Below are positions 1 through 54,300 of a stretch of 64,000 bases of DNA, piece after piece; positions within the stretch are counted from its first letter, which is position 1, and every line of letters begins with the position of its first letter. A program made the position numbers and the translations under genes. This DNA is from Paraspadella gotoi. Taxonomy: Eukaryota; Animalia; Chaetognatha. Where the stretch lies: NCBI GenBank assembly GCA_051294375.1, contig CM119264.1, positions 3,143,575 to 3,207,574 of the forward strand. The letters run 5' to 3'. The notes under the pieces were generated by a model. It saw nothing but the letters and a program-made list of their open reading frames with translations. It was not told the origin of the DNA and did no database searches.

Positions 1-413
1 ATGACAGAACCGTTCAATATAAGCAGTCCCTGAGCTTCAGATCAGGCTGTAACACCATGTTACAGGCAGGTTAAGCGCCCCGTCCCTCTTAACTGCTGGA
101 CGACCACCGGGCTTGAACCCCGGACCTTTGGGTTGGGAGGCGAATGACTTGCCTCTGGCACCAATGGCCGCTGATGAACGGTTGGTGGATTTTAGTCCAC
201 CATACATCCCCCCCTCCCATAGGGAGATGTCTGTTGCGTCTCTTCAGTGAATTGTTGTTGATGGAAAGTTCGTCACCAAGTTGAGGCATGTTGCTTGATG
301 TGTTGTTGGTGGAAAGTGCATCGCCAGGTTGAGGCATGTCGCCTGAAAGTGTTGTTGTTGCTGTTGTGTTCGGAAGTCGGGCTCACCAATGAAGTGGATT
401 TTAGTCCACCATA
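1..413 (-). mobile_element. Miniature LTR retroelement family 1 (tRNA-like LTR): 3' LTR truncated by window edge, internal domain, internally deleted 5' LTR
   Basis: On the minus strand: collapsed LTR 413-390 (TATGGTGGACTAAAATCCA joined to CTTCA), PBS TGGTGAGCCCGAC (388-376), ~185 bp internal domain, PPT GGGAGGGGGGGA (218-207), then LTR 204-1. Near-identical to 13346-13981. Confidence 0.85.
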
Positions 414-3484: not shown

Positions 3485-3601
3485 TATGGTGGACTAAAAT
3501 CCACCAACCGTTCATCAGCGGCCATTGGTGCCGGAGGCAAGTCATTCGCTTCTGGCACCAATGGCCGCTGATGAACGGTTGGTGGATTTTAGTCCACCAT
3601 A
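3485..3601. mobile_element. 117-bp palindromic element made of two family-1 LTR 5' ends head-to-head, 4-bp TSD GTAT
   Basis: TATGGTGGACTAAAATCCACCAACCGTTCATCAGCGGCCATTGGTGCC...GGCACCAATGGCCGCTGATGAACGGTTGGTGGATTTTAGTCCACCATA, flanked by GTAT (3481-3484) and GTAT (3602-3605). Confidence 0.85.
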
Positions 3602-4416: not shown

Positions 4417-7400
4417 CTACTTAAAATATATAAACCCACAAAGAATAGGAAAAAGCATGAAGAAATAAAGAAAAATATTAAAATCGTTTTGATTTTCTAA
4501 ATTGATAAACTTCAAGAGCTCTTTGAAAACCATGCCAGGTTCTAAGTTGTTTTTTGAATGATCTTTTCTAAGCACCAACAAATTCATTGCTTTTTTATAG
4601 TAGAACAAAGAAAAAGAGAATGAGGGCGTCTCCGTTGAAAGAAAATCTATAGGAAAATTATTTCTAGGATTGGAAATTAATTTATTCAATATAATTAAAT
4701 CATCCTGAGTCCTATTTGTTTTTGGCATTAAATTTTGTCCATTGAAAATGAATATTGGAGGTATAACTAAAAAAATTATAAATGATAATTTTGTACAATA
4801 TATATGTAATCTTTTACATTTAATTTTTAAAAGTGCAATTGCAATCCAAATAATCAAAGGCAGAAATGAAATGTTACAATAAATAGAAAAAGATTGACTT
4901 TTCTGGCTCAGACTAACCATGGCATCATGACAATTTTCAAAAGGAAAATTCTTAAAATTTTTTCGATAAAACTTCATTTTAAAAATTATTTCCATCTCAT
5001 GCGTTGTATCGCGAGTTCCTAATGTCAAGAAACCAGCGACCGAAAGCCCGAACGAAATTATTCCAATTAAACAAAATGACTGTTGAATATCCATAGACAA
5101 ATTTGACCAAGACCTTTTGTCAAAGGCCTCCAAAAATAAAAGAACAAAGTAAGATGTAATTGAAGTAAAACAATATTTGGTAAAAGTTGTAAAGCTTTTG
5201 TACCGAAATTCATTAAATTCATAAAGAGAATTGAGATTCAAACCAGCAAAACACTTAAAATTGTTGCATTGCGAAAAACCCAAATCTGAGAATGCGTGAG
5301 TGTAATTGATCGTTGCATAGATGTTGAGGGCAACCACGGTCAAAGGTGAGAGTGAAGCGATGGCCAATAGAGCTATCTTTGCTTGTTGCTTTCTTTGCAG
5401 CAGATGGATGAAGAGGTAAATGAAGCCCAAAATCAAATCTATGTTCAACATCAGAAGAATTCGTAAGTGAGTAGGATCAAGAAATTTGTAATTTCCGACT
5501 GCGTCATATTGAACTGGAATAAGTTTCCATTGAGGCCAAGAGAAACTAATCAGAGAAAAGAAATTGTATTAATGACAAAATATTTAACTATTTTCTTATT
5601 CGATAACTATTTAATTTTTTTGTTTTTATATTGAATTGTCAAATGAGAAAGTTTCAAATTTTTAGTAACTTGAAGTTTGAAATCTAAGGAATAGAAACAA
5701 TTAGAGAATCAGACATATAGTTTTAATATATACAAATATAAATCTACCCTAAATCGAGGTCGAATTACTTTTAGAGCAGTAGATTTTTTTTTAAAAATTA
5801 AAGAACATTACCTGAATTATTTTTTTTAAAAATAGTGCAACAAAGCAAAAAACAAAAAAATTCATCATTAATTTATGCAATAAGCAGTACAAAAATCAGA
5901 CTAAATTTTCATAATGTTACCGGTTTTGTGGGTGAGTTGCAAAGTATTGTTGTAATGATACTATAATGTCAGCAGTTATAATTCTTTCCCATCTTTTATG
6001 ATCAATTATACCAATTTTCTTGTAACATACATTTGGATATCTATGACCAGGGATATAAATTTTGTTATAATAAATGATTTTTGGAGATTGAGCCCAATGG
6101 TCTTTACCTTTATAAGATAAACTCTCCATAAACTTGACTCTCTTTGAAAATAAATTTACAGTGATGCGTGTATCTTCATTAAGAAAAATGGAGACTACCA
6201 GAACTGACATTGAGATCCTTATAAAATATTGGGCAAATGATATCTGTTTCTTTTCTAGAGAATCCCGCCCAAACAATCTGGACAGATAATCTCTCAACTC
6301 TGAAAAAGTAAAAATCCTTAGGAGTGCAAATGGTGACAAAATTGCAAACCAGATTGATGTCTTTAGGGTCCAAACATATATCAAATAAATATTTAAAACA
6401 AGACCAATGCAACTTTCTATGAGGCCAATTATTCCAACAAATGATGTCAGTTCATCACGAGATTTAACAGCAAAAGAGGCTAAGCTGATACTTGAGAGAC
6501 CAAAAGAGATGATAGTATTGTATTCATTAATCTCCCACCTGCAAGAATTTCTATTGCAGGTGCAGGGTTTGGACGTTTGGGTAAATGTTCCATTATTCCC
6601 AATTTTGTACAAAATAAATGTTTTACTAAATGAAAATGAAAGAGTTTTTATAATAACTGAAAATATCTTAACATCCTAAATAATACCATCGCAGAGAATG
6701 GATTACCAAGTAGCTTGCCTCTCTTGGCTTCTCCGTCTTTATGAGAGTTCCGATGACCGTTAATTTTTTAAGAAATTCGCTTAACCGTTAAAACTAACAT
6801 TTTTAATGGTTAACCGTTAAGATCGGTTAATTTTATAATTTAACTTTAAATTTAAAATATTAAGATTTAAAACAAACTAAAGTATTTAATGGTATTTTCC
6901 CTTTAACTCTGGCTCTTGAATGCGCTGATAAAGACTTGAAACAGAGTCGAAACATGTCTGTTTTTTATGTCAAATTATATTGTTGTTGTAACAAAACAAA
7001 TATTTTTGTTAATCTCATAACACAACGAAACGAAAGGATACCATCAAATTCTAATTCTATATTTTGTTTTCTCTTTCTCTCTTTTGCTTTTTCTTTCTCT
7101 ACTTCTTCTCTTCCTCATTATTTTTGGAGTTGTTTGTTTCTTAAACGCTTGTTTTCTGTTGTTAGTCTTTCATAAACTATGACCAATGGTCCTTGACCAT
7201 AAATATAAATATGAATTTTAATTTATTGATAGACTAGTTGATTTATCGATTGATCAAAATATTTATTGATGAATAAATATATTTTTCAGTTTAATTAAAA
7301 AGTATATCATCATTATTCTTTTTTATATGTCTTTTTTAAGATTCGTTCCTTCTATTATTAATTTTTAAATTTTTTTAAATAATTTTTTTTATTTGTTTTT

Positions 7401-10400
7401 TTATTAATTTTTTTTATTCATTTGGTTTTATTTCATTTGCTTCTTTAATCGTTTTAAAGAAGGAAAGAAAAAGAGAGAAAAAGTAAAATAAGCTGGATTA
7501 TTTATTTTTAGTTAAATTGAATATATTATTGCATGAAAGGGCAAAAAAAGGAAAAAGGTAAAACAAAGGGCAAAAAAAGGAGAAAAAAGAAAGGGGGAAA
7601 GAAAAAGGGGAAGTGAGAAAGAAAAAGAAAGGAACAGGAGATAAATAAAGGGGAAGAGAGAGATTAGGATAGAAAAAAATAAAAAATAACAAAAGAAAAA
7701 ATCAGGAAAAAAGTGGAGAAGAGAGAGAGGGGTAAAAATATGGTGAGGAGAGGAGAATAAGAGAAAACAGGAAAAAAATATATTTTTTTTTAAATTTAAA
7801 GACTTCATACCAAAAAATGAAAAAAATCACATTTGAAAATTAATCGAATTTAACCGTTAAAATAAATATATTAACGGTTAAGTTAAAATTTTTTTTAACC
7901 ATTAATAACCGTTAACAGTTAACGGTTATCGGAACACTAGTCTTTAGTTAAGATTTAGGAGTTATACTTTTTATATATTTTTATATATAAAGGAACAAGT
8001 TTGAGCAAACAATGTCGGATCACCATATGATAATTAATTGATTAATTAATAATTAATAATTAACTGATCATAACAGATCATACCATGCCAAACCAGTGGC
8101 TGCGCCAATACATGTAAATCACTTGAAATGGATTAAACTGAACTTTTACTGTGGTACAAATAGTTTTTTTGACTAGTATTATTTTTTCAACTTGTATTAT
8201 TTTTTCAAACTTGCATCATTTTTAAATTAGCATCATTTTTTCAACTCACATCATTTTTTCAACTAGCATCATTTTTTAAACTCACATCATTTTTTAAACT
8301 CACATCATTTTTCATCTTGTATCATTTTTTAATCTAGTATAATTTTTTCAACTTGCATCATTTTTTTAACTCGCATAATTTTTTCAACTTGCATCATTTT
8401 TTCAACTCGCATCAAACGCAAAGCGATTGCGACGATCTTGTAACGCTTTTGCACATAAGTGGCGTCGTCGCTGTCGTCCTCTTTGTCGTCGTCGGCGTTC
8501 CAACTTATCGATTACCTTTTTGATGATTAAATTTGGGTGTATGAAGCTGAAAATTTATATACAGTTTCTCATCATCGAGGTCCTTGAAATTGGGTGAGGA
8601 CGGTTATTAAATACGTTTTGTTTACGTTTTATCAAAACAAACAAATTTCCTCTATTATTTTTATTATTTTTATTTTTAAGAAAACATAAAAAAATTTGAA
8701 AGTTGTAATTATATTTTGTATTTATTTTTTTATGCTCTATCATAATCCATCAAAAAGTTAAGATTGATTAAAAAAAATTTTTATCATTATATAGTTATTT
8801 TATAATTTAGATAGTAACAATAAAAGCATTAAAATTGAACTTTTTTGAAAAATTATTTTTTTACCTGAAAGTAGACTTTAAGACTAAAGTTTTGAACGCC
8901 CGACCCTATTGAATTTAATTTCACAGTAGATTTCTACTTATATTTTTTTCCATTTAAACTCATTTCCACTTTTACGACTCCATCGAAACTTTATATCCAG
9001 CTTTATCACACACTTTCCTACCCACACACAAAATGTACTCTCAAACTATCCACCCAATTATGATTAATTAGAGTAATTATGGATTAAAATTAGTAAAATA
9101 TTTAAGTAAATGGACTTCTGTTGCTTCCATTTATACTAATTTTCACTCCCACGATTCCATCGAAACTATATATCCAGCTCAATCACACACTTTTCTAACC
9201 ACACACAATATTTCATTACAATACAACCATCCAATCACCAGTAATTAGTGTTTTATGCTATGGGTGACAGACAAACAGACGGACATCATTTTTTTTGCAT
9301 AATTTATCATAATTCGATGTTCTGACATGATTTAAGTTAATACCCAACACGATTAAGGGGGGGAACGATGGACCGACAAAGTCGAGAAGCTGATAAGTAG
9401 ATCTGACTAAAAACACATATATTTTGTCTATTGATTAGCGTATTATATTATATATATTGCGCTGATGAAGAGTCAAACATGTTTTTTTAAGTTGCGCCGC
9501 GAGTCGGACGTCAGTCGGTCTGTCGGTCCATCCGTCGGTCGGTCGGTATGTCTGTCTGTCGGTCTGTCCCACTGACGTTGAAAACACTTATTGCTTTCAG
9601 TTTGTTGCTCATTTGTTAAAACAAAAAAACCTCAAATCTATGAGACTAGTAGCGTCGCTTTTCGTTTTTAAAAATCTTACAAACTATAAGGAATAAAACA
9701 GGTGATTCTGATGCAGGGTGGTCGTATATACATGGAAATACAAGGGATAAGAAAGTAAAAAGAAAAGTAATGTGGCGCAACACCTTGGAATAACTGTTCT
9801 TTGTTTCCATAAAAAAATTGTTGTATGTTAACTTTAACACTTTGGGTTTTTTCTCTAGTAAATCTAAAAAAGCAACGAAAAGAAAGTTCAACACAATGTT
9901 TATACATGTATATTTCCAAAAACTGATTTACCCGCGTACTCGAAAACACTGCTCAGTGGTTCCACTTGTCAAGGCCAAAATAATTGCTAAAGCCTGAAGC
10001 AAAAATTGAGGAAAAGACTCAAACAAGATGTGCAGAAAATCAAGGGATGTGATAAAGGACATTTTTGATGACTTCAATATTGCAGAATGGGCATTGCAAT
10101 GTTTGTAGTGGTCAAGACGCTCATCCAAGTAAAATAACACATTTCCAAGACCAAAGACGCATAGACCACAAGTTCCAAATTTTCTCCAAATGCCAGAACT
10201 GAGTCGTGGATACAATGATGGATTGGTGGATAATGTTCGCCAGATTCGCCCACCAGAAACGCTGTTGTGAACGAAAAGCACAATGCCCATAGCAATTCCA
10301 ACGTGTTGCTCCATGAAAAATTCTCTTTGGTAGAATCTGATCATCGTTAACAAATCAGTGATGGTGTCAAAAATGCTGAGAAAGAAAAAGACCAAAGCAG

Positions 10401-10425
10401 CCATTATGATCTTTTGATTCTCCAT
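4417..10425 (-). CDS. XK-related-like multi-pass membrane protein, copy A (~775 aa; exons 10425-9932, 6625-5921, 5545-4417)
   Basis: TM1 FDTITDLLTMIRFY and LFESFPQFLLQ match XK-family DxxTD and ESxPQxxLQ motifs. Both GT-AG introns are phase 2 and join in frame (494+705+1129=2328 nt). The same structure recurs in copies C and D. Confidence 0.8.
6743..7939. mobile_element. hAT-like MITE in intron 1 of copy A
   Basis: Terminal inverted repeats GTTCCGATGACCGTTAA / TTAACGGTTATCGGAAC, multiple subterminal TTAACCGTTAA motifs, 8-bp flanks GTCTTTAT/GTCTTTAG. Confidence 0.65.
6919..6963 (+). ncRNA. Degenerate Penelope-type minimal hammerhead ribozyme (core mutated CUGAUAA)
   Basis: CTGATAA-a-GACT-tgaaacag-AGTC-GAAA-CATG-TC. 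Followed by the same ...CACAACGAAACGAAAGGAT tail as the copy at 19874. Confidence 0.55.
7994..9412 (-). mobile_element. Helentron/HINE-like non-autonomous element
   Basis: Ends match the family consensus TTTTAGTC(G/A)GATCT... and ...GATCCGACATTGTTTGCTCAAACTTGTT. Internal 18-bp (AACTCGCATCATTTTTTC)n array and GACA/GACG microsatellite. Confidence 0.7.
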
Positions 10426-11423
10426 GTTAAGATATAAAGAAATTTAGGATTTTTATGACCTGGAAATTAGCAACATACAATATCTGTTATAAGGGCAAGT
10501 GACAATAGTGTAAAATGAATTAAAGCTAGTCAATATAATAAATTTATGTATATAAATAAGATTTAGGTCAAGTCCGAATTTTGACACTGTACTCAGCTAA
10601 AAGTTGTATTTTCTATTACTAAACATGGTTTACTACTTTTTTTTTAAATTCGTTCAGTTTGCTGGCCGCAGTTTTGAACAATCAAAATATGCAAATTAGC
10701 TGCCGGCGACAGATCATTTTATTAAGATTTTGTGCTTAAATTTTGTTTTTATCCATAACAACCATTTAATATAATAGTTTAGACTAATATGAATGATTAA
10801 AGAATTATAACAAAGCTTTTAAAAATAATAACAAGATAAATATATTAAGAATATTATGTTTAAAACATGAATCCCTCTTTTGTTTAAGACTGTCATTGGA
10901 CTCTATTAAAAAGTGAATGAAAAGTGAATGGGCTGCCCAGCCCTTCTGTCAGTGTTAATAGCCCTATCATTCCCTTACTTGCTTATTTAGCACTAAAAGA
11001 TTTTAAAGATTAAGTATTTACCCAATATTTTTTACAAAGATGTTGAATGGAACACCATCATCCACCAGGTTAAGATCATAAAATGTCAAGTTTCTTGTTT
11101 ATTATTAGATTTTACAAGTTTGAGCAAAAAATGTCGGAACTGCCTACAATAATTTAGCAGTAAGTAGCTAATCAGATGGAATGTCCAATGAATGTGACAA
11201 GAAAATCCATAAATAAATAGAGAGAGAAACATTACTAATCATAACTAGATCATAACATTATGATTAACTTATTTCTAAATTAATCAATTAAAAAATTTAT
11301 AAATCAATTATTTAACCAAATTAACCATCAATCAATAAATCAATCAATCAATCAATCAGATAAATAGAGAGAGAGAGAAACTTTTAAAAATTCAGTGCAA
11401 TGAAACGTCTATGAAATATTATG

Positions 11424-12971: not shown

Positions 12972-13345
12972 TACATGTACAGTTTTGTACACTCTTTGGT
13001 GCAAGAACACTTTTCAGCAAATATGCAAAAAAAATTTAAAAAAAAACTGTTTTGAAATCTTAACATTTATTGGATTAGTACAAGAATAAATATGGCCTAC
13101 TCCGTAAATTGTAAAATTTATATAAATTTTTTATTACATAATTGTTCATTAGTATAATGTTGTTCATTCCTAACTTTTAGAATTTTAATTAAAGTTAAAT
13201 TTAGAAATTTTACTACGCCTTACTATACACATTATTGCCTATGTTTCAACATTTTCACTGTGTTATGTCTCTCCAATGTTTTACCTCATTCATAATAGAT
13301 GTCTCCCTACTCTCTATGTCATGGACCTCCACAAAAGCAAGTTAT

Positions 13346-13981
13346 TGAAGAGACATAATTAATTGATAGTGTTAATCAGACGTTCAATTATAAGAGTCCC
13401 TGAGCTTCGGATCAGGCTGTAACACCATGTTACAGGCGGGTTAGCGCCCGTCCCTCTAACTGCCAGACGACCACCGGGCGAGAACCCGACCTGTTGGGTT
13501 GGGAGGGCGAATGACTGCCTCCGGCCACCAATGGCGCTGATGAAGGTTGGTGGATTTTAGTCCACTATACATCCCCCCCTCCCGGTAGGAAGATGTCTGT
13601 TGTGTCTCTTCAGTGAATTGTTGTGGTGGAATGTCGTCACCAAGTTGAGGCATGTGCCTGATGTGTTGTGGCGGAAAGTGCATCGCCAGGGTGAGGCATG
13701 TCGCCTGAAAGTTTGTTGTTGCTGTTGTGTTCGGAAGTCGGCTCACCAATGAAGAGACAGTAATTATTTATAAGTGTTAATGACAGAACGTTCAATATAA
13801 GCAGTCCCTGAGCTTCGGATCAGGCTGTAACACCATGTTACAGGCGGGTTAAGCGCCCCGTCCCTCTTAACTGCCAGACGACCACCGGGCTAGAACCCCG
13901 GACCTTTGGGTTGGGAGGCGAATGACTTGCCTCCGGCCAATGGCCGCTGGATGAACGGTTAGTGGATTTTAGTCCACTATA
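13346..13981 (-). mobile_element. Complete 636-bp TRIM (family 1) with tRNA-like LTRs, PBS, PPT and 4-bp TSD TTAT
   Basis: Two LTRs of ~225-230 bp (13981-13750 and ~13569-13346) starting TATAGTGG and ending CTTCA. PBS TGGTGAGCCGAC, PPT GGGAGGGGGGGA, TTAT on both sides. The empty site AAAAGCAAG-TTAT-CAAGAATG is present in the inverted paralog at 28262-28265. Confidence 0.92.
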
Positions 13982-14325
13982 TTATCAAGAATGAAAGAAA
14001 GAAGGCAAGTAAGAAAATAGTTAATGTTCAAAGGCAGGACAATGCCTTAAAGAAAGAAGGAAAAAAAGCAATTTATCAAGAATTCAAGCATCGCAAATTT
14101 ATTTAGAGCAACCTTGTTCAGGGATCATTTCTGTATGCGGGGATTAGATTTTTTTGGATTCACAGTTAACGTCTGGGGTATTTTCAACAATGAAATTGAA
14201 ACTTATATAACTATTATTTCTTTTTCCCACTGATTAATAAACACACGCTTTATTTAAAAAAAACGGTTGGCATATAGTTATCTTCTCCTTATAACATAGA
14301 ACTAACTTGGAGAATTTCTATGCGG

Positions 14326-24774: not shown

Positions 24775-25009
24775 TGAAGAGACAGTAATTATTGATAAGT
24801 GTTAATGACAGAACCGTTCAATATAAGCAGTCCCTGAGCTTCGGATCAGGCTGTAACACCACGTTACAGGCGGGTTAAGCGCCCCGTCCCTCTTAACTGC
24901 CAGACGACCACCGGGCTAGAACCCCGGACCTTTTGGGTTGGGAGGCGAATGACTTGCCTCCGGCACCAATGGCCGCTGACGAACGGTTGGTGGATTTTAG
25001 TCCACCATA
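24775..25009 (-). mobile_element. Solo LTR, family 1 (235 bp), TSD AAAA
   Basis: Full LTR TATGGTGG...GTCTCTTCA with the tRNA-like core. AAAA on both flanks (low complexity). Confidence 0.85.
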
Positions 25010-26389: not shown

Positions 26390-26716
26390 TGTGGCGGTAT
26401 ATTTACACCGCCTCACATCTACCATCGTTTAGCCAATCCCATTGGCTCAGAGGGGGAATGCGCCATCCCAAGCATTGCGTTCAATCCCCAGTCCTAATGA
26501 CTTCCCAGTGTTGGCAAAGCAAGACCATCCTCAGGTAACCGCGTTAGTGACAAGAGGCATCACTGACGATGGGCATCCTCCAAAGCCGACAGTGAGTTGC
26601 CCCATCCCAATGGGCATCACAGGCAACCCGCCTGCCTCCATACTGATTACGAACTGTGATTAGCTTACACAAAAGTCAGCGGGGGTTTTTATCATCTGCC
26701 GTATATATCACTTTCA
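26390..26716 (+). mobile_element. Putative solo LTR, family 3, with Pol III A/B boxes
   Basis: TG...CA ends with flanks AACG/ACG. 5' hairpin GGCGGT-ATATTTAC-ACCGCC, A box TGGCTCAGAGG, B box GTTCAATCC. A second copy lies inverted at 54995-55245. Confidence 0.6.
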
Positions 26717-27920: not shown

Positions 27921-28389
27921 AATTCATTATCTTGGTACATGCAATGACTCTCAAAGAATTTTTGTATAATATTACGCATTATTAGTTCTGTGGACCAGTA
28001 GAACATCTTATTCATTCACGTCTGTTTAAAAGTCCATGTAAAAAGGAAAATTGACAAAACTGCCAGACATTAAATGTGAATCCAATAAAAATCTAATCCC
28101 TGCATACAAAAATTTATCCCTGAGTCACAAGGTTGCTATAAATGAATTCGCAATGCTTGAATTCTTGATAAATTGCTTTTTTTTTCCTTCTTTCTTTAAG
28201 GCATTTTCCTGCCTCTGAACATTAACTATTTTTCTTACTAGCCTTCTTTCTTTCATTCTTGATAACTTGCTTTTATGGAGGTCCATGACATAGAGAGGAG
28301 GGAGACATTTATTATGAATGAGGTAAAACATTTGAGAGACATAACAGTGAAAATGTTGAAACATAGGCAATAACGTGATGTGTATAGTT

Positions 28390-29852: not shown

Positions 29853-31047
29853 CTGGGCAGCCTATTCACTTTTTAATAGAGTTCAATGAAAGTCTTAAAC
29901 AAAAGAGAGATTCATGTTTTTTTCTTAATATATTTAACTTGTTATTATTTTTAAAAGCTTTGTTATAATTCTTTAATCATTCATATTAGTCTAAACTATT
30001 ATATTAAATGGTTGTTATAGATAAAAACAAAATTTAAGCACAAAATCTTAATAAAATGATCTGTCGCCGGCAGCTAATTTGCATATTTTGATTTTTCCAA
30101 ACTGCGGCCAACAAACTGAACAAATTGGAAAAAAAGTAGTAAACCATGTTTAGTAATAGAAAATGCAACTTATTGCCGAGTACAGTTTCAAAATTTGGAC
30201 TTGACCTAAATAGCCCCCATCTAATTTATATACATAAATTCATTATATATGACTAGCTTTAATTCATTTTACACTATTGTCACTTGCCTTATAACAGATA
30301 TTGTATGTTGCTAATTTCCAGGTCATCAAAATCCTAAATTTCTTTATATCTTAACATGGAGAATCAAAAATCATAATGGCCGCTTTGGTTATTGTTCTTT
30401 CTCAGCATTTTTGACACATCACTGATTTGTTAACAATGATCAGATTCTACCAAAGAGAATTTTTCATGGAGCAACTCGTTGGAATTGCTATGGGCATCGT
30501 GCTTTTTGTTCACAACAGCGTTTCTGGTGGGCGAATCTGGCGAACATTATCCACCAATCAATCATTGTATCCACGACTCAGTTCTGGCATTTGGAGAAAA
30601 TTTGGAACTTGTGGTCTATGCGTCTTTGGACTTGGAAATGTTTTATTTTATTTGGATGAGCGTCTTGACCACTACAAACATCGCAATGCCCAGTCTGCAA
30701 TATTGATGTCATCAAAAATGTCCTTCATCACATCCCTTGATTTTCTGCACATCTTCTTTGAATCTTTTCCTCAATTTTTGCTTCAGGCTTTAGCAATTAT
30801 TTTGGCCTTGACAAGTGGAACCACTGAGCAGTGTTTTCGAGTACTCGGGTAAATCAGTATTTGGAAATATACATATACGAAAAAAAGTTCAACACATTTT
30901 TTATACTATAAACATTGAGTTGACCTTTTTTTCATTGCGTTTTTAGATTTACTAAATGTTTTTTAGATTTTTAGATTTTTTAGATTTCCTAGAGAAAAAA
31001 CCCTAAGTTTCCTAAGTAGTTAACATACAACAATTTTTTTATTGAAA

Positions 31048-32901: not shown

Positions 32902-34104
32902 GGCGTAGTAAAATTTCTAAATTTAACTTTAATTAAAATTCTAAAAGTGAGGAACGAACAACATTATATTAATGAACATTTATGTAATAAAAAAAATTAT
33001 AATAAATTTTACTATTTACGCAGTAGGCCATATTTATACTAGTACTAAATCAATAAATGTTAAAATTTTAAAACGGTTTTTTCTAAGTTTTTTTTACAGA
33101 TTTGGATTCGTCATAAAAAGTTGATAAAAAGAAATATAACTCTTTATGAAAAATTCCTTCATTAAGTGGGTCAAAAATTAGAAAAAGCTATATTTTAAAC
33201 TGAAAATTAAATTTTTATATATTAAATATAGTTTTTTTAATTTTTAAACCACTTAATGAAAGAATTTTTAAAATGATTTATATTTTCTTTTATCAACTTT
33301 TGACGAGAAATTCAAATCTGCAATCAAAATTAAGAAAAGCTTATTTTGAAATTTTTCGATTTTATAAGGATAGTACTACTATCTAGGAAAAAAGTTAGAA
33401 ACATTTTTTTTTTAAAAGTTCATTTATTCAATAAAAAATATACAAAACATGGGTAAAACATTCTCAATATTTGGTATGCCCTCCCTCGCATCGACCACTG
33501 CCTGCATTCGTCTGGGCATGCTCTCGTAAAGCGAATTGAGGTACGAAGGTGAAATGTTTTTCCACACCTTTAGCGCAATTCTTTTCAGCCCGATGTTGAT
33601 GTTGCGCGTTCTCGACTTTGCATCTTTTTCATCTGCGACAAAGAGATTCAATTGGATTGAGATCGGGGGAGTTCCCCGGCCAACCAGAGAATAAGTTGAT
33701 ATGATGATTGGCATGCCACTGCTTCGTCGTAGCGGCTCTATGCGCAGGAGCTCCGTCTTCCATAAAGCGATAGGATTTTTTTCCGCCATTTTTCACTTGA
33801 GGTAGCAATCTTATTTTGCCTCTAACTTCTATACGGTTGGATCTACGAAAAATGGAAGGAAGCAACTGAAAGGAAATTTAGTGTAGAATCTGAAACATCC
33901 TGATTTTTTAAAAATCGAGCAAGTTTTCGAGTAGATATCCTCAATTAAAATGTTTCTAACTTTTTTCCTAGATAGTATATATAAATATAGCCTACTGCGA
34001 AAATTAAAAAACATAAAATTAATTTTTTTACAAATTAATGTTCACTGATGGTATGTTGTTCATAATTGACTTTTAGAATTTTCGTATGTAACTTTCACTA
34101 CGCC
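32902..34104. mobile_element. Kolobok-like MITE (TTAA TSD, GG...CC ends) hosting a nested Tc1 element
   Basis: TTAA|GGCGTAGT ... ACTACGCC|TTAA. Related pieces at ~13020-13222 and ~19420-20535. Confidence 0.6.
33379..33975 (-). mobile_element. Internally deleted Tc1-like transposon with transposase C-terminal remnant
   Basis: TIRs CTATCTAGGAAAAAAGTTAGAAACATTTT with TA TSD. Frameshifted peptide FMEDGAPAH...WPGNSPDLNPIE...LYESMPRRMQAVV carries the Tc1 D(34)E motifs. Confidence 0.9.
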
Positions 34105-37037: not shown

Positions 37038-38148
37038 AGCGATGGTATTATTTAGGATGTTAAGATATTTTCAGTTTTTATAAAAACTCTTTCTTTTTCA
37101 TTTAGAAAAAAATTTATTTTGTACAAAATTGGAAATAATGGAACATTTACCCAAACGTCCAAACCCTGCACCTGCAATAGAAAATCCTGCAGGTGGGAGA
37201 TTAATGAATACAATACTATCATCTCTTTTGGTCTGTCAAGTATCAGCTTAGCCTCTTTTGCTGTTAAATCTCGTGATGAACTGGCATCATTTGTTGGAAT
37301 AATTGGCCTCATAGAAAGTTGCATTGGTCTTGTTTTAAATATTTATTTGATATATGTTTGGACCCTAAAGACATCAATCTGGTTTGCAATTTTGTCACCA
37401 TTTGCACTCCTAAGGATTTTTACTTTTTCAGAGTTGAGAGATTATCTGTCCAGATTGTTTGGGCGAGATTCTCTAAAAAAGAAACAGATATCATTTGCCC
37501 AATATTTTATAAGGATCTCAATGTCAGTTCTGGTAGTCTCCATTTTTCTTAATGAAGATACACGCATCACTGTAAATTTATTTTCAAAGAGAGTCAACTT
37601 GAGGAAGAGTGTATCTTATAAAGGTAAAGACCATTGGGCTCAATCTCCAAAAATCATTTATTTTAAAAAAATTTACATGCTTGGTCCTCATATTCAAAAT
37701 GTATGTTACAAGAAAATTGGTATAATTGATCATAAAAGATGGGAAAAAATTATAACTGCTGACATTATGGTATCATTACGACAATACTTGGCAACTCACC
37801 CAAAAAACAGGTAACATTTTGAAAATTTAGTCTGATTTTTGTACTGCTTATTGCATAAATAAAATTTTCATTAATGACTTTCTAACAGAAATGATGTGTG
37901 ATATCTATTAGAAAACTAGGACAGATAGTAATCTAACCTTGTGTTGTATAGATGCTCCCTCTATTTCCAGAAGACAACACTGACTTCCCCTTCCCAAATT
38001 GAATTATTAGATAAATAAATCATTTTTAAGAAAGAAAGCAATATATATTTGATTAAATAATAAGATTAAATACTAAATCCTTCATAAAATATAAAAATAG
38101 AAAATAGTGAAACAAGTAATTTGCAAATTTTCATAAATAAATGATTAA

Positions 38149-39975: not shown

Positions 39976-42648
39976 AAAAAAACTACTGCTCTAAAAGCTT
40001 AAGTATTTTGTCATTAATACAATTTCTTTTCTCTATTTAGTTTCTCTTTGCCTCAATGGTCACTTTTTCCAATTCAATATGACGCGATCGGAAATTACAA
40101 ATTTCTTGATCCATCTCACTTACAAATTCTTCTGATGTTGAACATAGATTTGATTTTAGGCTTCATTTACCTCTTCATCCATCTGCTGCAAAGAAAGCAA
40201 CAAGCAAAGATAGCTCTATTGGTCATCACTTCACTCTCACCGTTGACTGTGGTTGCCCTCAACATCTATGCAACAATCAATTACACTCACGCATTCTCAG
40301 ATTTGGGTTTTTCGCAATGCAACAATTTTAAGTGTGTTGCTGGTTTGAATCTCAATCTCAATTCTCTTTACGAATTTAATGAATTTCGGTACAAAAGCTT
40401 TATAACTTTTACCAAATATTCTTTTACTTCAATTACATCTTACTTTATTCTTTCATTTTTGGAGGCCTTTGGCAAAAGGTCTTGGTCAAATTTGTCTATG
40501 GGTATTCAACAGTCATTTTGTTTAATTGGAATAATTTCGCTCGGGCTTTCAGTCGCTGGTTTCTTGATATTAAGAACTCGCGATACAACACATGAGACGG
40601 AAATAATTTTTAAAATGAAGTTTTATCGACAAAATTTTAAGAATTTTCCTTTTGAAAATTGTCATGATGCCATGGTTAGTCTGAGCCAGAAAAGTCAATA
40701 TTTTTCTATTTATTGTAACATTTCATTTCTTCCTTTGATTATTTGGATTGCAGTTGCACTTTTAAAAATTAAATGTAAAAGATTACATAGATATTGTACA
40801 AAATTATCATTTATAATTTTTTTGGTGATACCTCCAATATTCATTTTTAATGGACAAAATTTAATGCTGAAAACAAATATGACTCATCATCATGATTTAA
40901 TTATATTGAATAAATTAATTTCCGATCCTAGAAATGAGTTTCCTATAGATTTTCTTTCAACGGAGACGCCCTCATTTTTTCTTTGTTCTACTATAGAAAA
41001 TCAATGAAATTGCTGGTGCTTAAAAAGATCATTCAAAAAACAACTTAGAACCTGGCATGGTTTTCAAAGAGCTCTTGAAGTTTATCCATTTTAGAAATCA
41101 AAACGATTTTAATATTTTTCTTTATTTCTTCATGTTTTTTCCTATTCTTTGTAGGTTTATATATTTTATGTAGTAGAAAGTAAAAATTATTAAAAAGTAA
41201 AAAGCACTGCTAATTTTCTATTGGTTAAAATAGAAAATATCGGCAGCTCTTACTTTAAATAAATTAAATATTTAAATAAATTATAGTAGGAAACATGTCT
41301 TTTCAACTTTTGATACCTACTACGAGGATTTGTCTCTTACTTTTTCTACTATGAGTAATTGAGTATTTTCCCTTTACTTTCTATAGAAATTTGCTCTTCT
41401 GTCTGCACCCACTAGATCTTCACTTGCATTGCTTTACACAAAATAGCAAATTTTTGTTTGTTTTGGTCTTAATAAACCAGATGGCTCTACAAAAAAGAGC
41501 GTTTTTAAAACAAAATAGCAATGAAATTTAGTTTTAGTATATCTTTTCTGAAACAAAAGAACAGTCCTATTAAATCTTCTTTATATTTATACCATATTTT
41601 ACTAGAGGCCTTTACAAAACAGGAGGCCCTTTGTAAGACAAAGGAACAATCAAAAAATTTTATCTCTACCCACTAGATCTTCACTTGCAACTGCTCTTCA
41701 ACAAAATAGCAAGTTTTTTTTTCGCTTTTCTTATCAGAAATATTTTTAAAAATAATTTTTTTTATATTTTTGCAAAATATAAAAATATGCAAAATTACTT
41801 ATTTATTTTTTTAATATCTTTTAATGACGGCATATATGCAAGAGAGACACAAAAGAATTGAAGCAATATAGAAGAAAAAATGCAGGTTGATGTCCGCAAA
41901 ATTAACTTAATAAAAATTACGCAACAGTTTAGATTTAAATTAATTATTAAATTTCAAAACACTATTTACAATCACTTAATAGATCAAATTTATACCAATA
42001 TTACACATTTGAATTAGAATTCAATTGAAGTAATTCCATCTTATTATTCAGATCATCACCTTATTGATTATGTCTGCCAAAAACAATTCCAAAGGGTAAA
42101 CCAGTGGCTTAAACTGAACTGTTACTGCGGCAATAATAATATTTTTTTTAAATTTGCATCATTTTTTAACTTTTTTTTCAACCTTTATCAATAAATTAAA
42201 ATAAATTTCTGTAAAACTCATGTTTTTGTCGATTTTAGAGTTGTCTTTTATTGGCTTAGTATAGATATAACATTATTGTTCGTTTCATACCGTCGACTTT
42301 AAATGCCACCGATCAAATATCGAAAAGTTTGGAATCGAGCGACGAGAATTCAAAAATGCCAGAGGCTAAAAATATTTTTCGCGATATTATTATTAGAAAT
42401 TCACTGGGTGAGGTTATCCCTAACAAAAACCTATTCTCAAAAGATAAAAGAGACGAAATGAATTTATTTTTCGAAAAGGGGAAAAGAGGGCCCTTGGCAA
42501 AAATATCTAATATTTCAAAAATAAACTCAGATGACTCAGAAATCTTCCCTTTAGAATCTTTTTGGGCCCTGGATCTGAAAGTGGAATCCGCTGCACCTCA
42601 GGGGTTGAAACTCAAGAAGCAAACGAATCCGCCTGCAGGATGGCAGTG

Positions 42649-42815: not shown

Positions 42816-43099
42816 TGTAATCGGAGCATTGCTCCTGCTGCTGTAATTGTATATCTCAACTAAATAATACAAAAGAAAAATGTACGATAAACGTAACATC
42901 GACCGATGACTTATTAGCTAATAACCGAAATTAGAAATAAAAGATGATTTCGAAAAAATAGAATTACCCAACGTTTTCGCAATTAGGAAGTGAAGGAATC
43001 CTAAAACTGCAAAACGAATCCACTGAAATACAAAAGTGGAAATCTTGGATGACAAACGACGACTCTCGACCAAATAAGAGCGACGCTTAACAATTAGAG

Positions 43100-44149
43100 T
43101 TGCACGACTTAACAATTTTACGACACATTCCGTTTTTCAAAATAAATAGTCAACAAATTATTTTTAGATTATTTATAAAAGAAAATGGAAACGTAGATAA
43201 ACTAATTTTAATAGATACTAAACAGCTGACCGAAATGACGGAAAAAGTACACCACGAATATGGACATTGTAATTTTAATACAGTTTTTAAAATTATATCG
43301 ACAATGTACAATGTACTACTGTACACCTGGAATGCGACGACGAATTACTGACGCAATCAGAAACTGTCATGTTTGTGTGAGTTACAACATAAAACCGACG
43401 GTGAAGGAGAAACCATCGACTTAATGCCGTTCGCACCGAGACAAATACTTTCTTGCGATTTGCTGGGTCCGATAACAAACTCGAAAGGGTATAAATATAT
43501 ATTCTCAGCTCGAGACGCTTACAGTAGAGAATCTTTCTTAATACCGATAAAATCTACTTCGGCTGAAGATGTCGCTCATGCCTTTTTAAAGATATTCGAA
43601 TCTCATGGAATTTGGGATTGCGTTTCAATCGATGGTAAATGTGTGACACAATGAAAAGTCGATAGGACTATTTTCAGAAAACTGGGAGTACAGGTGCAAC
43701 AAAGTACGTACGTCAGTAGACATCAGCTTTACTTGGAACGATTAAATCAAATCTGTCTGATTCGAATTTTGAAATGGTTAAACAAAGAACCCGACTTACG
43801 AAAGTGGTCCGACATTTTGAAGAAAGTTGAATTCTCCATAAACATGAGTCCATGCGTCTCGTTAGGGGGAAGGAGTCCATTCCAGGTAACCCGGAAAGAC
43901 GGGATGAAGGCGTTGACGCCGGAGATCGACCCGTTGGAAGGGCGTAAAGCTGTAGAAGAGGATTTTAATATGTTATTAGAAATGCACCGTGAAATTCGCT
44001 TTGCGGCATATAAACATTTATTATCTTATCAGCAACAATTGAATCCTCGAGATAAAAACCGAAGCGTTAAGAAAGGGAGAAATAATCTTTCGAAAACGCA
44101 TGTCGTTGAAATTGAAATTACAGAAAGTATAGTCTCTGCTCTCATTTAA
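43100..44149 (+). mobile_element. Degraded Gypsy-type retrotransposon integrase
   Basis: HHCC finger (VHHEYGHC...IRNCHVC), core DLLGP...YKYIFSARDAYSR...IDG...ERLNQ, and W...L..VEFSIN....SLG..SPF. Broken by frameshifts and stops. Confidence 0.85.
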
Positions 44150-47682: not shown

Positions 47683-48671
47683 TATGGTGGACTAAAATCC
47701 ACCAACCGTTCATTAGCGGCCATTGGTGCCGGAGGCAAGTCATTCGCCTCCCAACCCAAAGGTCCGGGGTTCTACCCCGGTGGCCGCCTAGCAGTTAAGA
47801 GGGACGGGGCGCTTAACCCGCCTGTAACATGGTGTTACAGCCTGATCCGAAGCTCAGGGACTGCTTATATTGAACGGTTCTGTCACTAACACATAAAAAT
47901 TATCACTGTCTCTTCATTGGTGACCCCGACTTCCGAGATCCGTGGTTGTTAGATAACCGGTTATCAGCACTATCACCAAATCATCACCAGTTGGTCACTG
48001 TTACGATTAAACACAACTTGCCTAACAGCAAGTAATCATCAAAAACAAAATCTTCAACAGCTGGTTATTTTCACGATTTAACCAAGCTTGCCTAATAGCA
48101 AGCAATCATCATAACAAACATAACCAAACAAATCATTTTTCCTATCTCCCTACTTCCTTTTTATAAAATTTCTTCCCAAAATATATTTTTTTTGAGAAAA
48201 GATATATGTAAATATTTATTGTAGAAGACAAACCACTTTTTAGTGGGTCCCCCCAAATGTTTCTCCTAGACCTTATTGTTTGCCCAAATATTACCCCAAG
48301 GAGAAACAATATTGTAAAGTACTTTGTTCCTTAACAAGTAGTTCAAGTCACCTCAACTGTAAATAGGGTCAGTTCGAACCCTCAGGTCCGAACTTGAGGG
48401 GGGGATGAGGCGACTTACCACTGGTCCATCTCTAAACCCTTCCTCTCTCCTCTTTCTTCGAGCCGGTCTATTCCACACGGTCACTTTGCCCGAGCTTTGG
48501 CAATGACCGGACACAGTAATAGGGCCGAGGCGACCGTAAGGTCAAGTTGGTCCGAGCGATGATAAAAGTGGATCAGGAGAGAGCTAGACTCACTTCTTTT
48601 CTACTTCTCTTACATCGTCACAATTCTTCACCTTCTCCTCACTTTTATTATTATTATTTTCGTCTTCTACA
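47683..48671 (+). mobile_element. Family-1 5' LTR + PBS, ~480-bp internal region, PPT and an unrelated 3' LTR-like segment, candidate TSD CTGC
   Basis: LTR 47683-47916; PBS TGGTGACCCCGAC (47918-47930, matches the tRNA-Trp 3' end); PPT GAGGGGGGGA (48396-48405); TG...CA segment 48406-48671; CTGC at 47679-47682 and 48672-48675. Confidence 0.65.
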
Positions 48672-49400: not shown

Positions 49401-51313
49401 AATTTAATTCCTATTTTTTCCCTTCATAATCATTATATGTAGAGTGTCAAGCGTACTGTCACTTTGAATGAACACTGTGTCAAATTGGTAAGTTTATTTT
49501 TTAATTTGATTGAACCACCGGAAAGATGAGTTCATACAGTTTTTATTGTGTCTACAAATCTACATTATCATGTTTATTTGTATTATTATCGAACCATTGC
49601 AAAGTTCAAATGAGGGAGGATTTTTGTTTCGACAATCGATCAAAAAATTTAGGTGATATTAAATTTATAAAGTTGAGCTGCTTTTGGTAAAAAATAATTG
49701 TGCAATGTGCATGTTGGTTATGTTGATTATGCTCTTGCTTAGATTTTTGTAGATTAGAATGATTGACGATGTTAATAATTTCAGAAAAGAAGTTGCAAAG
49801 AATGATTGTGATGAAAATTTGTTTTCATGGACGCTCTTTAATTTTTACCTTCAGGAAACAGATAAACATTACAAATTTATTATGTTATTATTCAGCATAT
49901 GGTGTTAGATGCATAGAGTCCATTTTACTGCTAAAAATAATTTCCAGCTGACTGCAGCTAATATGTATTGCCAATGCGGCCTTTTTAATCATCATGCCCC
50001 GTTGCCATATGACGGAGCAGGGAATCTCTCTCGTTCGCTCTCTCTCTCTCTTTGGCTGGATGACTCAGAGTCCGGATCGGGATCGACAAAAACGACGACG
50101 ATAATTTGAACGATGGATTAATTGTTTAGGGTTTAGGTTAGGGATAAGGTTAGTTTAGGGAATAGATATTAGGGATTACGGTAGGGGTTAGGGATTAGGG
50201 TTGGGATTAGGGTTGGGGATTAGGGTCGTTTTTCCCTACGCTACTTTTGCAACAATAAAATTCTGGCTAGCTGGGTGATTCAGCAAGAGAAAGAATTTAG
50301 CCTCCGTCAGGATCGGGATCGACAGAAACAATGACGATAATTTGAACGATGGAGGAAGCAGTTGCATCGGTGAGAGCGACGACAAAAAGAGTGATGCATA
50401 AAGCGACGATAAAAGCAGCAAAATATACGAGTTTTGTGCATGTGTTTGAGTCCGCTGCTTCAGGAGCCGCAGCAAAAGGGCTTCTTTGAAAAAAAGTGCC
50501 GTTTTTCTAGTTAAAACTTATAGAAAATAAAAATTTTAGCGTTAAAAAAATGGATAAGAACAATGATCTGGCAAGAGCCTGTTGCCTAACTAAACCTTGA
50601 AATATATTATTAAGAATTAATGAGACATTATACTAACTAAGGATTATAAAAGAATTTAAAAAAATTACCTAAACTTTTTTACAATGAGTTTAAAATTGAA
50701 TTATCAAATAAAAGGAAAAAAATGTTGCAAAAAAAGCTGCTGGAATGCAAGCGCACCAGTTGCTATAATGTAAAACTAAAATTAACAATTTTCTTTATAG
50801 GAACAAAAACTTCCAACTAATGAAATGAACAAATATTAAACACAGTAAGTCAGTTAAGAGTTATAACAACTCTTTTCATTTCACTCCCATTTGAAATCCG
50901 TGTATGGTAAAAATCTGTCAGTGTATGTAGACAAGTAGCATAAAAAAATTAGGGTAGTGTAGTTGGGTAGTTGGAAAGATTTTAAAATTTACAATGAATT
51001 TTTCAAAATTTTAAAAAGTAAAAAAAAGTAATAAAAAGTAATAAAAAGTAATATAATCGTTAGATTTTAAAAATGAAGACATCATATAAAACTGTAAGGA
51101 CTTCTGAATCCAACAAGTATACATAGTAAATGCAGTTTTTATAACTATATATAAATTCATTATATATGACTAGCTTTAGTAAATTTTATACTATTGTCAC
51201 TTGCCCTTACAACAGATATCGTACATTGCTAATTTCCAAGTCAGCAAAATCTCTTTAATCTCCTCAATTTCTTTATGAAATTGGTACAACCAATATAAAA
51301 GTTGTATCATAAC

Positions 51314-54300
51314 ATGGATAATGAAAAGATGATAATGGCCGCTTTGGTCTTTGTCTTTCTCAACATTTTTGACACCATCTCTGATTTGTTAACAATGATC
51401 AGATTCTACCAAAAAGACTTTTTAGTGGAGCAATATGTTGGCATTGCTATGGGTATTGTGCTTTTTGTTCACAACAGCGTTTCTGGTTGGCAAATCTGGC
51501 AATCATTATCCACCAATCAATCATTGTATCCACGACTCTCTGGCGTTGGGAAAAAAATTGTAACTTGTGGTCTGTGCGTCTTCGGTCTGGGAAATGTGTT
51601 ATTCTACTTGGATGAGTGTCTCGACTCCTACAAACAACAAAATGCCCATTATGCAATATCGATGTCAGCAAAAATGTCCTTTATCAATTCCCTTAATTTT
51701 CTGCACATCTTGTTAGAGTCTTTTCCTCAATTTTTGCTTCAGGCTTTAGCAATTATTTTGGCCTTGACCAGTGGAACCACTGAGCAGTGTTTGAGAGTAA
51801 ATCTCGGGTAAATCAGTATTTGCAAATATAATACTGACGAGAGAGAAATAATTGTTATGAATTAGTGACTGAGCCGTTCAATATAAGCAGTCCCTGAGCT
51901 TCGGATCAGGCTGTTACACCGTGTTACAGGCGGGTAAAGCGCCCTGTCCCTTGAAACTGCTAGGTGACCTACGGGCTAGAACCCCGGATCTTTGGGTTGG
52001 GAGGCGAATGACTTGCCTCCTCTACCATACTACAATGTATTACTACATGTATAAACATTGTCTTGAACTTTATTTTCATTGCGTTTTTAGATTCGGAGAA
52101 AACAAGAACAGTAATTCTTATGTGTTGCGCCGCAGTGACTTAATATTCATGTGTATTTCCCTTTGATCACACATAACATGACATGACATGACTGTCAAAC
52201 TTTCTATGCCCGTGTATTTATGACATGCACAAATAAAAATTATGTCTTTTATTCCTTATGGTTTTAGGAATTCCTGAAAGTGGCGATAGCAATCCCTTTG
52301 ATTTGTGGTTTTTTCTGTCTTAACAAATGAGCAACCAACTATAGGAAAATTATATGTATTTTTAACATAGTGGGACAGACCGACGGACAGATATACCAAC
52401 CGATGGACCGACCGACAGACCGACCAAAAAGTGACTTATAGCAGGGGAAGCCCAACTCAATGGGGTGAGTCAAAAATTAAGAGTGAGTACATACTCAAAC
52501 GAATATTTAGACATTTTAAGGAATACTTTCAATGGACAAAATTTTTTTAATATGGCTTTATACCCTAGTAATTATTTTTTTAATATTTATTTATAGATAG
52601 GAAAGGCCAAAAGTTTTTTTTATAAATTTTAAATTTTAAGACCAGATTCAGATAGCTCATAAAAAGTTGTCTACATAAAGTATAATTCTTTTTTAAATAT
52701 TTTTTATCAATATTTTTTGATGATTTTTTCATTTTTAAAAGCTGTAATTATATTCATCGTTTAACTTTTTATGATCAATTAGAATCCATCAAAGTTTAAG
52801 ATTTCCAAAAAAACATTTTGCTCTATATAGTAAAATGATATTTTTGATTAGGCTTGTACCCTCAGAAGAAAACATTTTTGACAAAAAAATATTTGAATAC
52901 CATAATTTATGGTTATGATAGATTATTCTAACGCTGTATACATTAGCATTTAAATTTCATCGGCTATGGCTACTTATATAGTTGCTCCGCGAGTACCGTC
53001 TGTCTATCTGTCTGTCCATCACCCTTAGCAAAAAACTTCAATTACTCGTGATTGTGTAGTCGGGCATTGCTTAGGTTCACCCCGCCTATAAGTATGACAC
53101 TTTCAGTCGTGACCCGGTGGCTCATTGAGTAAAGCCATCAGCTCATGACCACTAAGTACCGGGTTCAATCCCAACCCAGTACCTACCATGTGAGAAGAGT
53201 GAGGACGGCCGTAAGCTGCCTTGGGGGCATGGCGCCTTATCCATAATTGGATGGATTGAAATAAAATTTGGAGTATGATTAGAGTTAAATGAAATTTCGT
53301 GTGTGGTTAGAAAAGTGTGTGATTGAGCTGGATATAACGTTCCGTTGGAATCGTGCAAGTGGAAACTAGTTTAAATGGAAAAAACAAGTCACATTTACTT
53401 GAATCTTTTTACTAATTTTAATTTTATTTTGAAGTATTTTTACTTATATTNNNNNNNNNNGGTTCAATCCCAACCCAGTACCTACCATGTGAGAAGAGTG
53501 AGGACGGCCGTAAGCTGCCTTGGGGGCATGGCGCCTTATCCATAATTGGATGGATTGAAATAAAATTTGGAGTATGATTAGAGTTAAATGAAATTTCGTG
53601 TGTGGTTAGAAAAGTGTGTGATTGAGCTGGATATAACGTTCCGTTGGAATCGTGCAAGTGGAAACTAGTTTAAATGGAAAAANNNNNNNNNNCATTTATT
53701 TGAATTTTAAAAGTTTTTCTATCTCTCTCTGATTGATTGATTGATTAATTGATTGATTGATTGATTTACAAAAGTATGCCAGTTGACCAAATTTGCCAGA
53801 TGAAAAAATTATGTCAGTTGACCAAATTATGCTAGTTGACAAAATTATGCCAGATGACCAAATTATGCCAGTTGACCATATTTTACCGGTTGACCAAATT
53901 ATGCCAGTTGACCACTGGTAAAATTTGGTCAACAAGCGTTATTTTGTCATCTGAAAAATAAAGCAAGTTGAATAAATTATTCAAGTTGACCAAATTATGC
54001 AAGTTGGTATTGATTGATAAATCAATTGATTTATAGATTTTTTCATAGATTTATTAAGATGTCTGTTATTATTTGTTATGTTATGGTTTGTTATGATCTT
54101 AAATTGAAAGTAAAAAAAAACTACCGTGATTTATCATCGGATTAGCTTATTACCGCTTAATTATCGTAGGCAGATCCGACATTGTTTGCTCAAACTTGTT
54201 TCAACTTGCATTTTTAGTTGGATCTGCTTATCAGCAGATTCTGACTCTATAATTCACTTTGTCGGTCCGCCCCCTCAATCTTGTCGGGCATTAACTTAAA

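Follow-up and report, generated by a model that had tools for sequence, protein, structure and literature searches.

A 636-bp element in the genome of the chaetognath Paraspadella gotoi is a TRIM of the Helenus type that, with a probability that we put at roughly 0.6, works as an animal LTR retrozyme carrying a predicted type-P5 twister ribozyme in each of its LTRs. The element lies in a stretch of 64,000 nucleotides (contig CM119264.1 of assembly GCA_051294375.1, positions 3,143,575 to 3,207,574), which is referred to here as the window and provides the coordinates used throughout (Table 1). TRIMs of the Helenus type with a tRNA-like head have already been described, and the twister in the LTR is the new part; the candidate ribozyme domain takes up 76 nt of the unit, and its presence behind the tRNA-like part changes the likely life cycle of the element. 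In what follows, we present the anatomy of the element and its family, the evidence on both sides for a ribozyme, and a model for its propagation that is weighed against three other explanations.

The whole TRIM is carried on the minus strand at 13346-13981, in the order LTR, PBS, interior, PPT and LTR. A two-LTR unit with PBS and PPT had been proposed at this place by the first-pass annotation, and its strand can now be given as minus. One spacer base separates the 5' LTR from the PBS and two separate the PPT from the 3' LTR, and the termini of the element are TA...CA, not TG...CA. TTAT stands on both sides of the element and the paralogous segment has a single TTAT at 28262-28265 without an insert, in agreement with the exact 4-bp TSD and the uninterrupted site that had been reported. 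The element had also been described as devoid of coding capacity, which holds in that the only frame of at least 100 codons lying over it (13459-13767) has no Pfam match. The two focal LTRs differ by three substitutions and 18 gap events and are 89% identical, and 16 gap events separate the focal 3' LTR from the solo LTR. Compared with all other LTR copies, the indels at 13346-13569 comprise one or two bases and fall mostly within short runs; they are likely errors of long-read consensus or assembly. Because of these presumed errors, the LTR-LTR identity of 89%, with three substitutions but 18 gap events, gives no age for the insertion, and an age estimate on this basis was dropped.

Table 1. 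Positions of the element, its relatives and other features in the 64,000-nt window (strand: +, plus; -, minus;., none assigned)
Feature	Position	Strand	Remarks
Whole element (TRIM)	13346..13981	-	ends TA...CA
TSD TTAT, left copy	13342..13345	.	
TSD TTAT, right copy	13982..13985	.	
5' LTR, 232 bp	13750..13981	-	
tRNA-like stretch, 5' LTR	13877..13947	-	two G-U pairs in acceptor stem; box B; box A weak
Type-P5 twister-like domain, 5' LTR	13800..13875	-	descriptor match; outer limits inferred from 47790-47865
Positions in the 5' LTR domain	general-base G 13862; loop L4 from 13819; predicted cut 13851/13850	-	
Primer-binding site (PBS), tRNA-Trp/CsRn1 type	13737..13748	-	G variant, one C missing
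Interior, 180 bp, A/C-rich	13570..13749	-	92% identity to 205-389
Polypurine tract (PPT)	13572..13583	-	2 nt ahead of 3' LTR
3' LTR, 224 bp	13346..13569	-	rich in 1-2 base indels, likely from assembly errors
Twister-like domain, 3' LTR	13393..13464	-	G 13452; predicted cut 13443/13442; approximate limits
Empty site in paralogous segment	28262..28265	-	
Second two-LTR copy	1..413	-	interior 205-389; 3' LTR cut by window edge
Fold-back, 117 bp, two inverted LTR heads	3485..3601	.	GTAT both sides
Solo LTR	24775..25009	-	TTTT both sides (inside T run); twister core intact
LTR (47683-47916) with perfect Trp primer site	47683..47936	+	then interrupted by another repeat
Decayed 5'-truncated LTR	51835..52020	-	general-acid A and one pseudoknot base changed
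Twister-like domain, copy 47683	47790..47865	+	
P5, 6 bp	47790-95/47860-65	+	copy 47683
P2, 3 bp	47799,47801-02/47817-19	+	bulged A
General-base G; A	47803; 47804	+	copy 47683
Pseudoknot T1, 3 bp	47805-07/47847-49	+	
Linker, 6-nt self-complementary (near-palindrome)	47808-13	+	in place of P1
Predicted cut site U-A-A	47814/47815	+	
Pseudoknot T2, 2 bp, G-C	47820-21/47852-53	+	
P3, 8 bp	47822-29/47833-40	+	
P4, 5 bp	47841-45/47854-58	+	
Hydrophobic-protein ORF sets	4420-6675, 9931-10443, 30415-30849, 37056-37811, 40018-41004, 51299-51808, 55653-59096		

All six related loci that had been counted in the 64 kb were found again (Table 1). The three loci with both ends are each flanked by 4-bp direct repeats (TTAT, TTTT within a T run, and GTAT), and the LTR copies of the window differ from one another by 5-9 substitutions; the family is young. 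The copy at 1-413 retains 24 bp of its 5' LTR (about 390-413) after a deletion that fuses the first hairpin arm with the final LTR bases, and it bears two C-to-T changes within the twister stems. The fold-back at 3485-3601 is made of inverted copies of the first ~55 bases of the LTR, joined at the LTR's own central hairpin; it occurs as a single copy between low-complexity flanks and has the appearance of a reverse transcript that snapped back on itself, ended up with two left ends and nevertheless became integrated.

Copies and their ends were assessed in contigs of public reads from runs X2, X7 and X9, which belong to three studies, one of them possibly that from which the assembly itself was made, and from run X10. 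Unrelated flanks begin at the first base of the LTR of copy 47683 in 152, 108 and 30 contigs of X2, X7 and X9, respectively, with 39, 32 and 11 further contigs diverging one position outside it; at the other end of the LTR, such flanks follow the last base in 172, 113 and 43 contigs, and flank agreement outside the LTR ends is 0.41-0.46 in the same runs. Fixed ends had been set beforehand as a test by which the TRIM interpretation could be refuted, and the LTR ends proved to be constant across many loci; similarly, the many copies suggested from the six loci are borne out by contigs that leave the LTR ends into unrelated flanks at many loci. The summed contig depth of the LTR is thousands of times that of the flanks, a figure that is not a copy number. 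Contigs that cross the PBS continue in each of the four runs into an interior of the focal type; of these runs, X10 carries a second organism label and contributes two contigs' worth. Since contigs past the PBS of copy 47683 enter this interior, the idea that this copy represents a sister family with an interior of its own was rejected. The DNA that follows its PBS is part of another repeat, an A/C-rich stretch at 47934-48302 with an internal 73-bp duplication, which has a different upstream sequence in read contigs and is thus a separate repeat. The exact LTR motif had no match in metagenome contigs and none in viral contigs.

The PBS had been described as complementary to the 3' end of tRNA-Trp, which is true of a perfect 13 nt in the copy at 47918-47930 only, but not of the focal copy. 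In the focal copy, as in that at 205-389, the seventh position of the PBS is G. Read contigs restore the base that is absent from the focal PBS, and none of the 40 rows listed, out of 45, departs from that G; the G form appears to be the form of the family. The site at 47918-47930 equals those printed for Gypsy-32_NVi and Helenus-2_SyJa (supplementary Fig. S2 of PMC10886601), and CsRn1-like Gypsy elements are reported with both forms of the PBS (G and C) and with 4-bp TSDs (PMC2582038). A tRNA-Trp PBS of the G or C form and a 4-bp TSD, by which the CsRn1 clade is recognized, are both present in our element, and this correspondence points to the clade of its helper. No helper element was found, and the single match of the PBS motif in metagenomes lies inside a bacterial gene and is due to chance. 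The window also contains a broken integrase remnant at 43091-44149 (43352-44149), which has in-frame stops and a match to Pfam rve (E 4e-06) under the cut-off of that family; two homolog searches gave no homolog, and its look-alikes are generic eukaryotic integrases. No LTR link between the remnant (43352-44149) and the TRIM was seen, and this candidate was set aside.

Each LTR had been thought to hold a tRNA-like cloverleaf, best preserved at 47717-47788. A tRNA-like stretch is indeed present in that copy, but its position is one base off and should read 47716-47787, and the cloverleaf itself could not be upheld: ARAGORN found 0 genes, a single hairpin stands in the place of the D and anticodon arms, and the stem of the T arm is shifted by one base relative to box B. 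The Rfam scan of the whole window at E<=1 returned no tRNA. Local Rfam scans covered three regions with 4227 families, and the Infernal-type check that had been recommended for the LTR thereby gave the tRNA model in two of the three, but below its cut-off of 29 bits: with 19.2 bits at 13947-13877 (E 0.31), where it was the top match, and with 16.9 bits at 47717-47787 (E 0.55). The local scan of the copy at 1-270 gave no tRNA match. The 7-bp acceptor stem is paired by G-C or G-U in every copy that possesses it, box B (GGTTC) occurs with at most one mismatch in four of the five LTRs scanned, the indel-rich 3' LTR failing the pattern, and a box A-like word is found 44 nt before box B in three of the five, with one mismatch to a box A pattern and not in the TRGCY/YGG form. 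The tRNA-like part is, in sum, a tRNA-derived relic with promoter-like boxes and not a cloverleaf, and it is likely to represent a putative RNA polymerase III promoter. The element contains no run of four T, which is not significant, as 24% of shuffles lack one too. The domain behind the tRNA-like part was also considered to be a further tRNA, one whose variable arm is long; this reading was rejected because the twister pattern explains the same helices and there is no Rfam tRNA match at that place.

The stable hairpins that had been noted behind the tRNA-like part both exist, but their identity is a different one, namely helices P3 and P4 of a type-P5 twister ribozyme pattern. The copy at 47790-47865 presents the general-base G, A46, U-A-A, the loop U..AAGC, T1 and T2 in the order of type P5 as given by the Rfam consensus; the roles of the residues (general base, general acid and others) are assigned after twister structures. 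All catalytic and pseudoknot positions are intact in four LTR copies, and among six copies pairing amounts to 95% over the twister stems and to 100% in P4. Variants that reach at least 8% of read depth occupy 19 LTR positions, of which one is in the twister core (at a CpG), two are at the P3 loop and one is at the outer P5 pair, with pairing kept.

We combined these features in a descriptor that demands the core bases and pairing, but not P1, and that was shaped and loosened after the target had been seen. On both strands of the 64 kb it matches four places, all of them LTR copies (both focal LTRs, the solo LTR and copy 47683), and a looser version finds the same four. It had no match in 20,000 shuffles of the LTR or in 20,000 shuffles of its GC-rich part, a result that is generous because the descriptor had been fitted to a known target. 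For comparison with natural twisters, a motif scan led to 121 phage loci, from which the 20 best paired were chosen; 19 of these 20 passed Rfam Twister-P5, and the descriptor recovered 16 of the 20 selected loci when P5 was not demanded and 4 when it was. A model of our own, built from 17 phage twisters, places the LTR copies as six of its first seven matches. T1 of the LTR has one pair swapped relative to the common twister form. Among 120 phage loci with the swapped T1, 18 (13 distinct) also have P1, P2 and P4, and all eight swapped-T1 phage twisters submitted to Rfam scored above the Twister-P5 cut-off, at 43.5-57.5 bits, six of them being near-identical. Swapped-T1 Twister-P5 ribozymes of phages (L174, L190, L223 and their kin) are common, with an estimated ~470 matching stretches. 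Natural twisters have been found to tolerate defects in P1, P2 and P4, but not changes of the pseudoknots or of catalytic positions (PMC11662667). Taken together, the LTR motif is very probably derived from a twister. Two further candidates were rejected, an alternative register with the cut inside P3, which gains a 4-bp P1 but has only two of four P2 pairs, at read-variable positions, and a weak match of the twister model at 26446-26477, which lacks T2 and P4 and is attributed to chance.

Other results speak against a ribozyme. Local Rfam scans gave no twister in the LTR at E<=10, the gathering score of RF02684 being 37.6 bits, and no match to hammerhead, HDV-like, pistol or hatchet ribozymes. 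Even our own 17-twister model scored the LTR copies at 7.3-12.6 bits (E 0.32-4.9) and mostly aligned P4/L4 alone. Two of the six LTR copies have damaged twister cores, and covariation among the six did not go beyond that in shuffles. The LTR domain is not a full member of RF02684: it resembles that family in helix order, catalytic G and A, both pseudoknots and the L4 loop, but it has no P1 helix, its P2 consists of 3 bp with a bulged A versus 4 bp in the type-P5 twister, and its score is below detection. In folding calculations, which leave pseudoknots unscored, the monomer prefers a competing hairpin at -29.0 kcal/mol, which buries the T1 and P2 strands, over the nested twister fold at -19.5 kcal/mol. 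The linker duplex between two copies was calculated at -8.3 kcal/mol, and a swapped dimer, again with pseudoknots unscored, at -50.7 versus -58.0 kcal/mol for two monomers and -69.2 kcal/mol for the best two-strand fold. Control folds of natural twisters, judged by eye, had P1, P2 and P4 all in the best fold for three of five. The predicted circle, computed on the indel-rich focal copy, is 48% paired and no more stable than shuffles, with a z of -0.8.

The observed parts of the life cycle that we propose are the anatomy, the 4-bp TSD, the fixed ends and the motif. Polymerase III would probably initiate in the tRNA-like head of the 5' LTR and read through both ribozymes, a read-through that we propose because the element is without a run of four T, which alone is not significant. 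The twister motif would then probably cut the transcript once per LTR, and cuts at 13851/13850 and 13443/13442 would yield 408 nt here and about 420 nt with error-free LTRs. The unit RNA from such a double cut would have no terminal redundancy; the usual strand jump would therefore be unworkable, and a circle would solve this problem. There may be an even chance that a host ligase circularises the unit RNA and that reverse transcription from the PBS rebuilds the whole LTR without a strand jump, a route that has been proposed for plant retrozymes (PMC4918200). We suggest somewhat tentatively that the two ribozymes could pair through the 6-nt self-complementary stretch that replaces P1, in which case cutting would need both LTRs; short palindromes are also found in the hammerheads of Penelope-like elements and amphibian repeats, which cut as dimers (PMC6765202, PMC7229834). 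Reverse transcriptase and integrase would quite probably be supplied by a Trp-primed, CsRn1-like Gypsy element. The model in its entirety, with a Pol III tRNA head, P1-less twisters that cut only as a dimer, a 420-nt circle and a CsRn1-like Gypsy reverse transcriptase, is speculative and, as a conjunction of all its parts, less probable than not.

The element could instead be an ordinary Helenus TRIM, as the first-pass annotation had proposed, that makes a linear, terminally redundant Pol III RNA; the twister would then be a dead relic or a set of structural hairpins without a role in replication. All of the Helenus anatomy is present, Rfam recognizes no twister, P1 is missing and the competing fold is preferred; moreover, in a family separated by only 5-9 substitutions, an intact core could reflect recent ancestry and not selection. 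However, such a relic would have to have kept all catalytic and pseudoknot positions intact in four LTR copies, together with a compensated pair also found in natural twisters, and its defects sit on helices in which natural twisters tolerate defects (PMC11662667), so that we consider this explanation unlikely. It is also conceivable, although we hold it to be rather improbable, that the twister does cut but that the intermediate is linear or multimeric, the cut in the 3' LTR making the 3' end in place of a terminator while the competing hairpin delays the 5' copy long enough for ordinary LTR strand transfer. The monomer fold that buries P2 and the pseudoknot strands is consistent with this route, as is a predicted circle that is not unusually self-paired, and the only model shown for LTR elements is that of the plant retrozyme circles (PMC4918200). 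Against it, the same motif is present in both LTRs, nothing was seen that would make one cut and the other not, and a full double cut removes the terminal redundancy on which strand transfer would depend.

A chance tandem of a tRNA-derived SINE, with unrelated DNA between the two units, is scarcely credible. A solo unit does exist at 24775-25009, but one 4-bp TSD encloses the whole of the focal unit, for which an empty site is known, PBS and PPT lie at the LTR edges, and the second copy has the same interior. The ends are fixed and tail-less, and contigs from the PBS enter the same interior in four runs; the shared interior and the fixed ends refute the tandem. We return to a Helenus-type TRIM that likely works as an LTR retrozyme and compare it with known systems.

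Helenus elements of animals are non-autonomous TRIMs with tRNA-like LTRs, a 4-bp TSD, a Trp-type PBS and a Gypsy helper, and they correspond to the TRIMp3 proposed by Kojima 2024 (PMC10886601). The Helenus-like reading of the first-pass annotation matches this published definition, but it overstated the cloverleaf and left out the twister pattern. Our element shares with Helenus a size below 1 kb, the tRNA-like LTR, the box B GGTTC, PBS, PPT and the 4-bp TSD, and its copy at 47918-47930 has the Trp PBS of Helenus-2_SyJa and Gypsy-32_NVi, identical over 13 nt. It departs from most Helenus families in a box A that deviates from TRGCY/YGG, and from published Helenus elements in its TA...CA ends and in the twister pattern of its LTR; apart from box A, it has all of the Helenus characters that we tested. 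Three LTR motifs had no match in the published Helenus consensus set, and the family is therefore not among the published ones. Twister L4 motifs likewise had no match in published Helenus LTRs and one match in an interior, and the available portion of PMC10886601 names no ribozyme in Helenus. As to Cassandra and Ajax, which are recognized by 5S rRNA in the LTR, Rfam scans of the window and of the local regions gave no 5S match. Two published Helenus LTRs from Synergus wasps, Helenus-2_SyJa-LTR and Helenus-2_SyUm-LTR, contain, as judged by eye, a type III hammerhead-like core behind the tRNA-like part; these cores have complementary loops and go unmentioned in the available text of PMC10886601. 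The wasp elements are similar to ours in having the same Trp PBS and, within the LTR, a ribozyme-like core behind a tRNA-like part, but their core is of the hammerhead type, their interior is longer and no LTR similarity was seen.

Plant LTR retrozymes (PMC4918200, PMC7761336) are, like our element, non-coding, with a self-cleaving-type motif per LTR, PBS, PPT, a 4-bp TSD and a Gypsy helper. They differ in their hammerhead, their tRNA-Met PBS, LTRs of 300-400 bp and an interior of 300-600 bp, they are without a tRNA-like head, and their circles have been shown, whereas ours is only predicted. In addition, the RNAs of described retrozymes are highly self-paired, in contrast to our predicted circle (48% paired, z -0.8). 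By the strict, hammerhead-based definition the element is not a retrozyme, but it likely works like one; according to the accessible part of a 2026 preprint, LTR retrozymes occur primarily in plants. A relaxed or missing P1 is known from twister variants of the Schistosoma retrotransposon Perere-3 (PMC8501958), which is a non-LTR element, and the short palindrome recalls the dimeric hammerheads of Penelope-like elements and amphibian repeats (PMC6765202, PMC7229834), which are hammerheads in non-LTR elements. In the literature covered, mostly open-access, we found no twister described from an LTR or a TRIM; the supplementary twister lists of PMC11662667 and PMC8501958 could hold the motif. If our reading is true, the range of LTR retrozymes comes to include a further ribozyme and, likely, animals, and twisters gain a concrete job. 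It would also answer how the Pol III transcript of a Helenus-type element obtains a defined end and is reverse transcribed, and, together with the wasp hammerhead, it would imply that self-cutting RNAs were acquired repeatedly by TRIMs with a tRNA head. Should the pairing of the two ribozymes also be true, twisters can act as obligate dimers.

The remainder of the window contains paralogous long ORFs for hydrophobic proteins, in three sets and in inverted segmental copies (Table 1). One set is XK-related by a Pfam match (E 1.5e-05) just under its cut-off, and the other two have no Pfam match. A fragment of a DDE_3 (Tc1-like) transposase lies at 33632-33877 (E 2.3e-06), and at 53162-53682 a 222-bp exact duplication is found beside two runs of 10 N, which is likely an assembly join.
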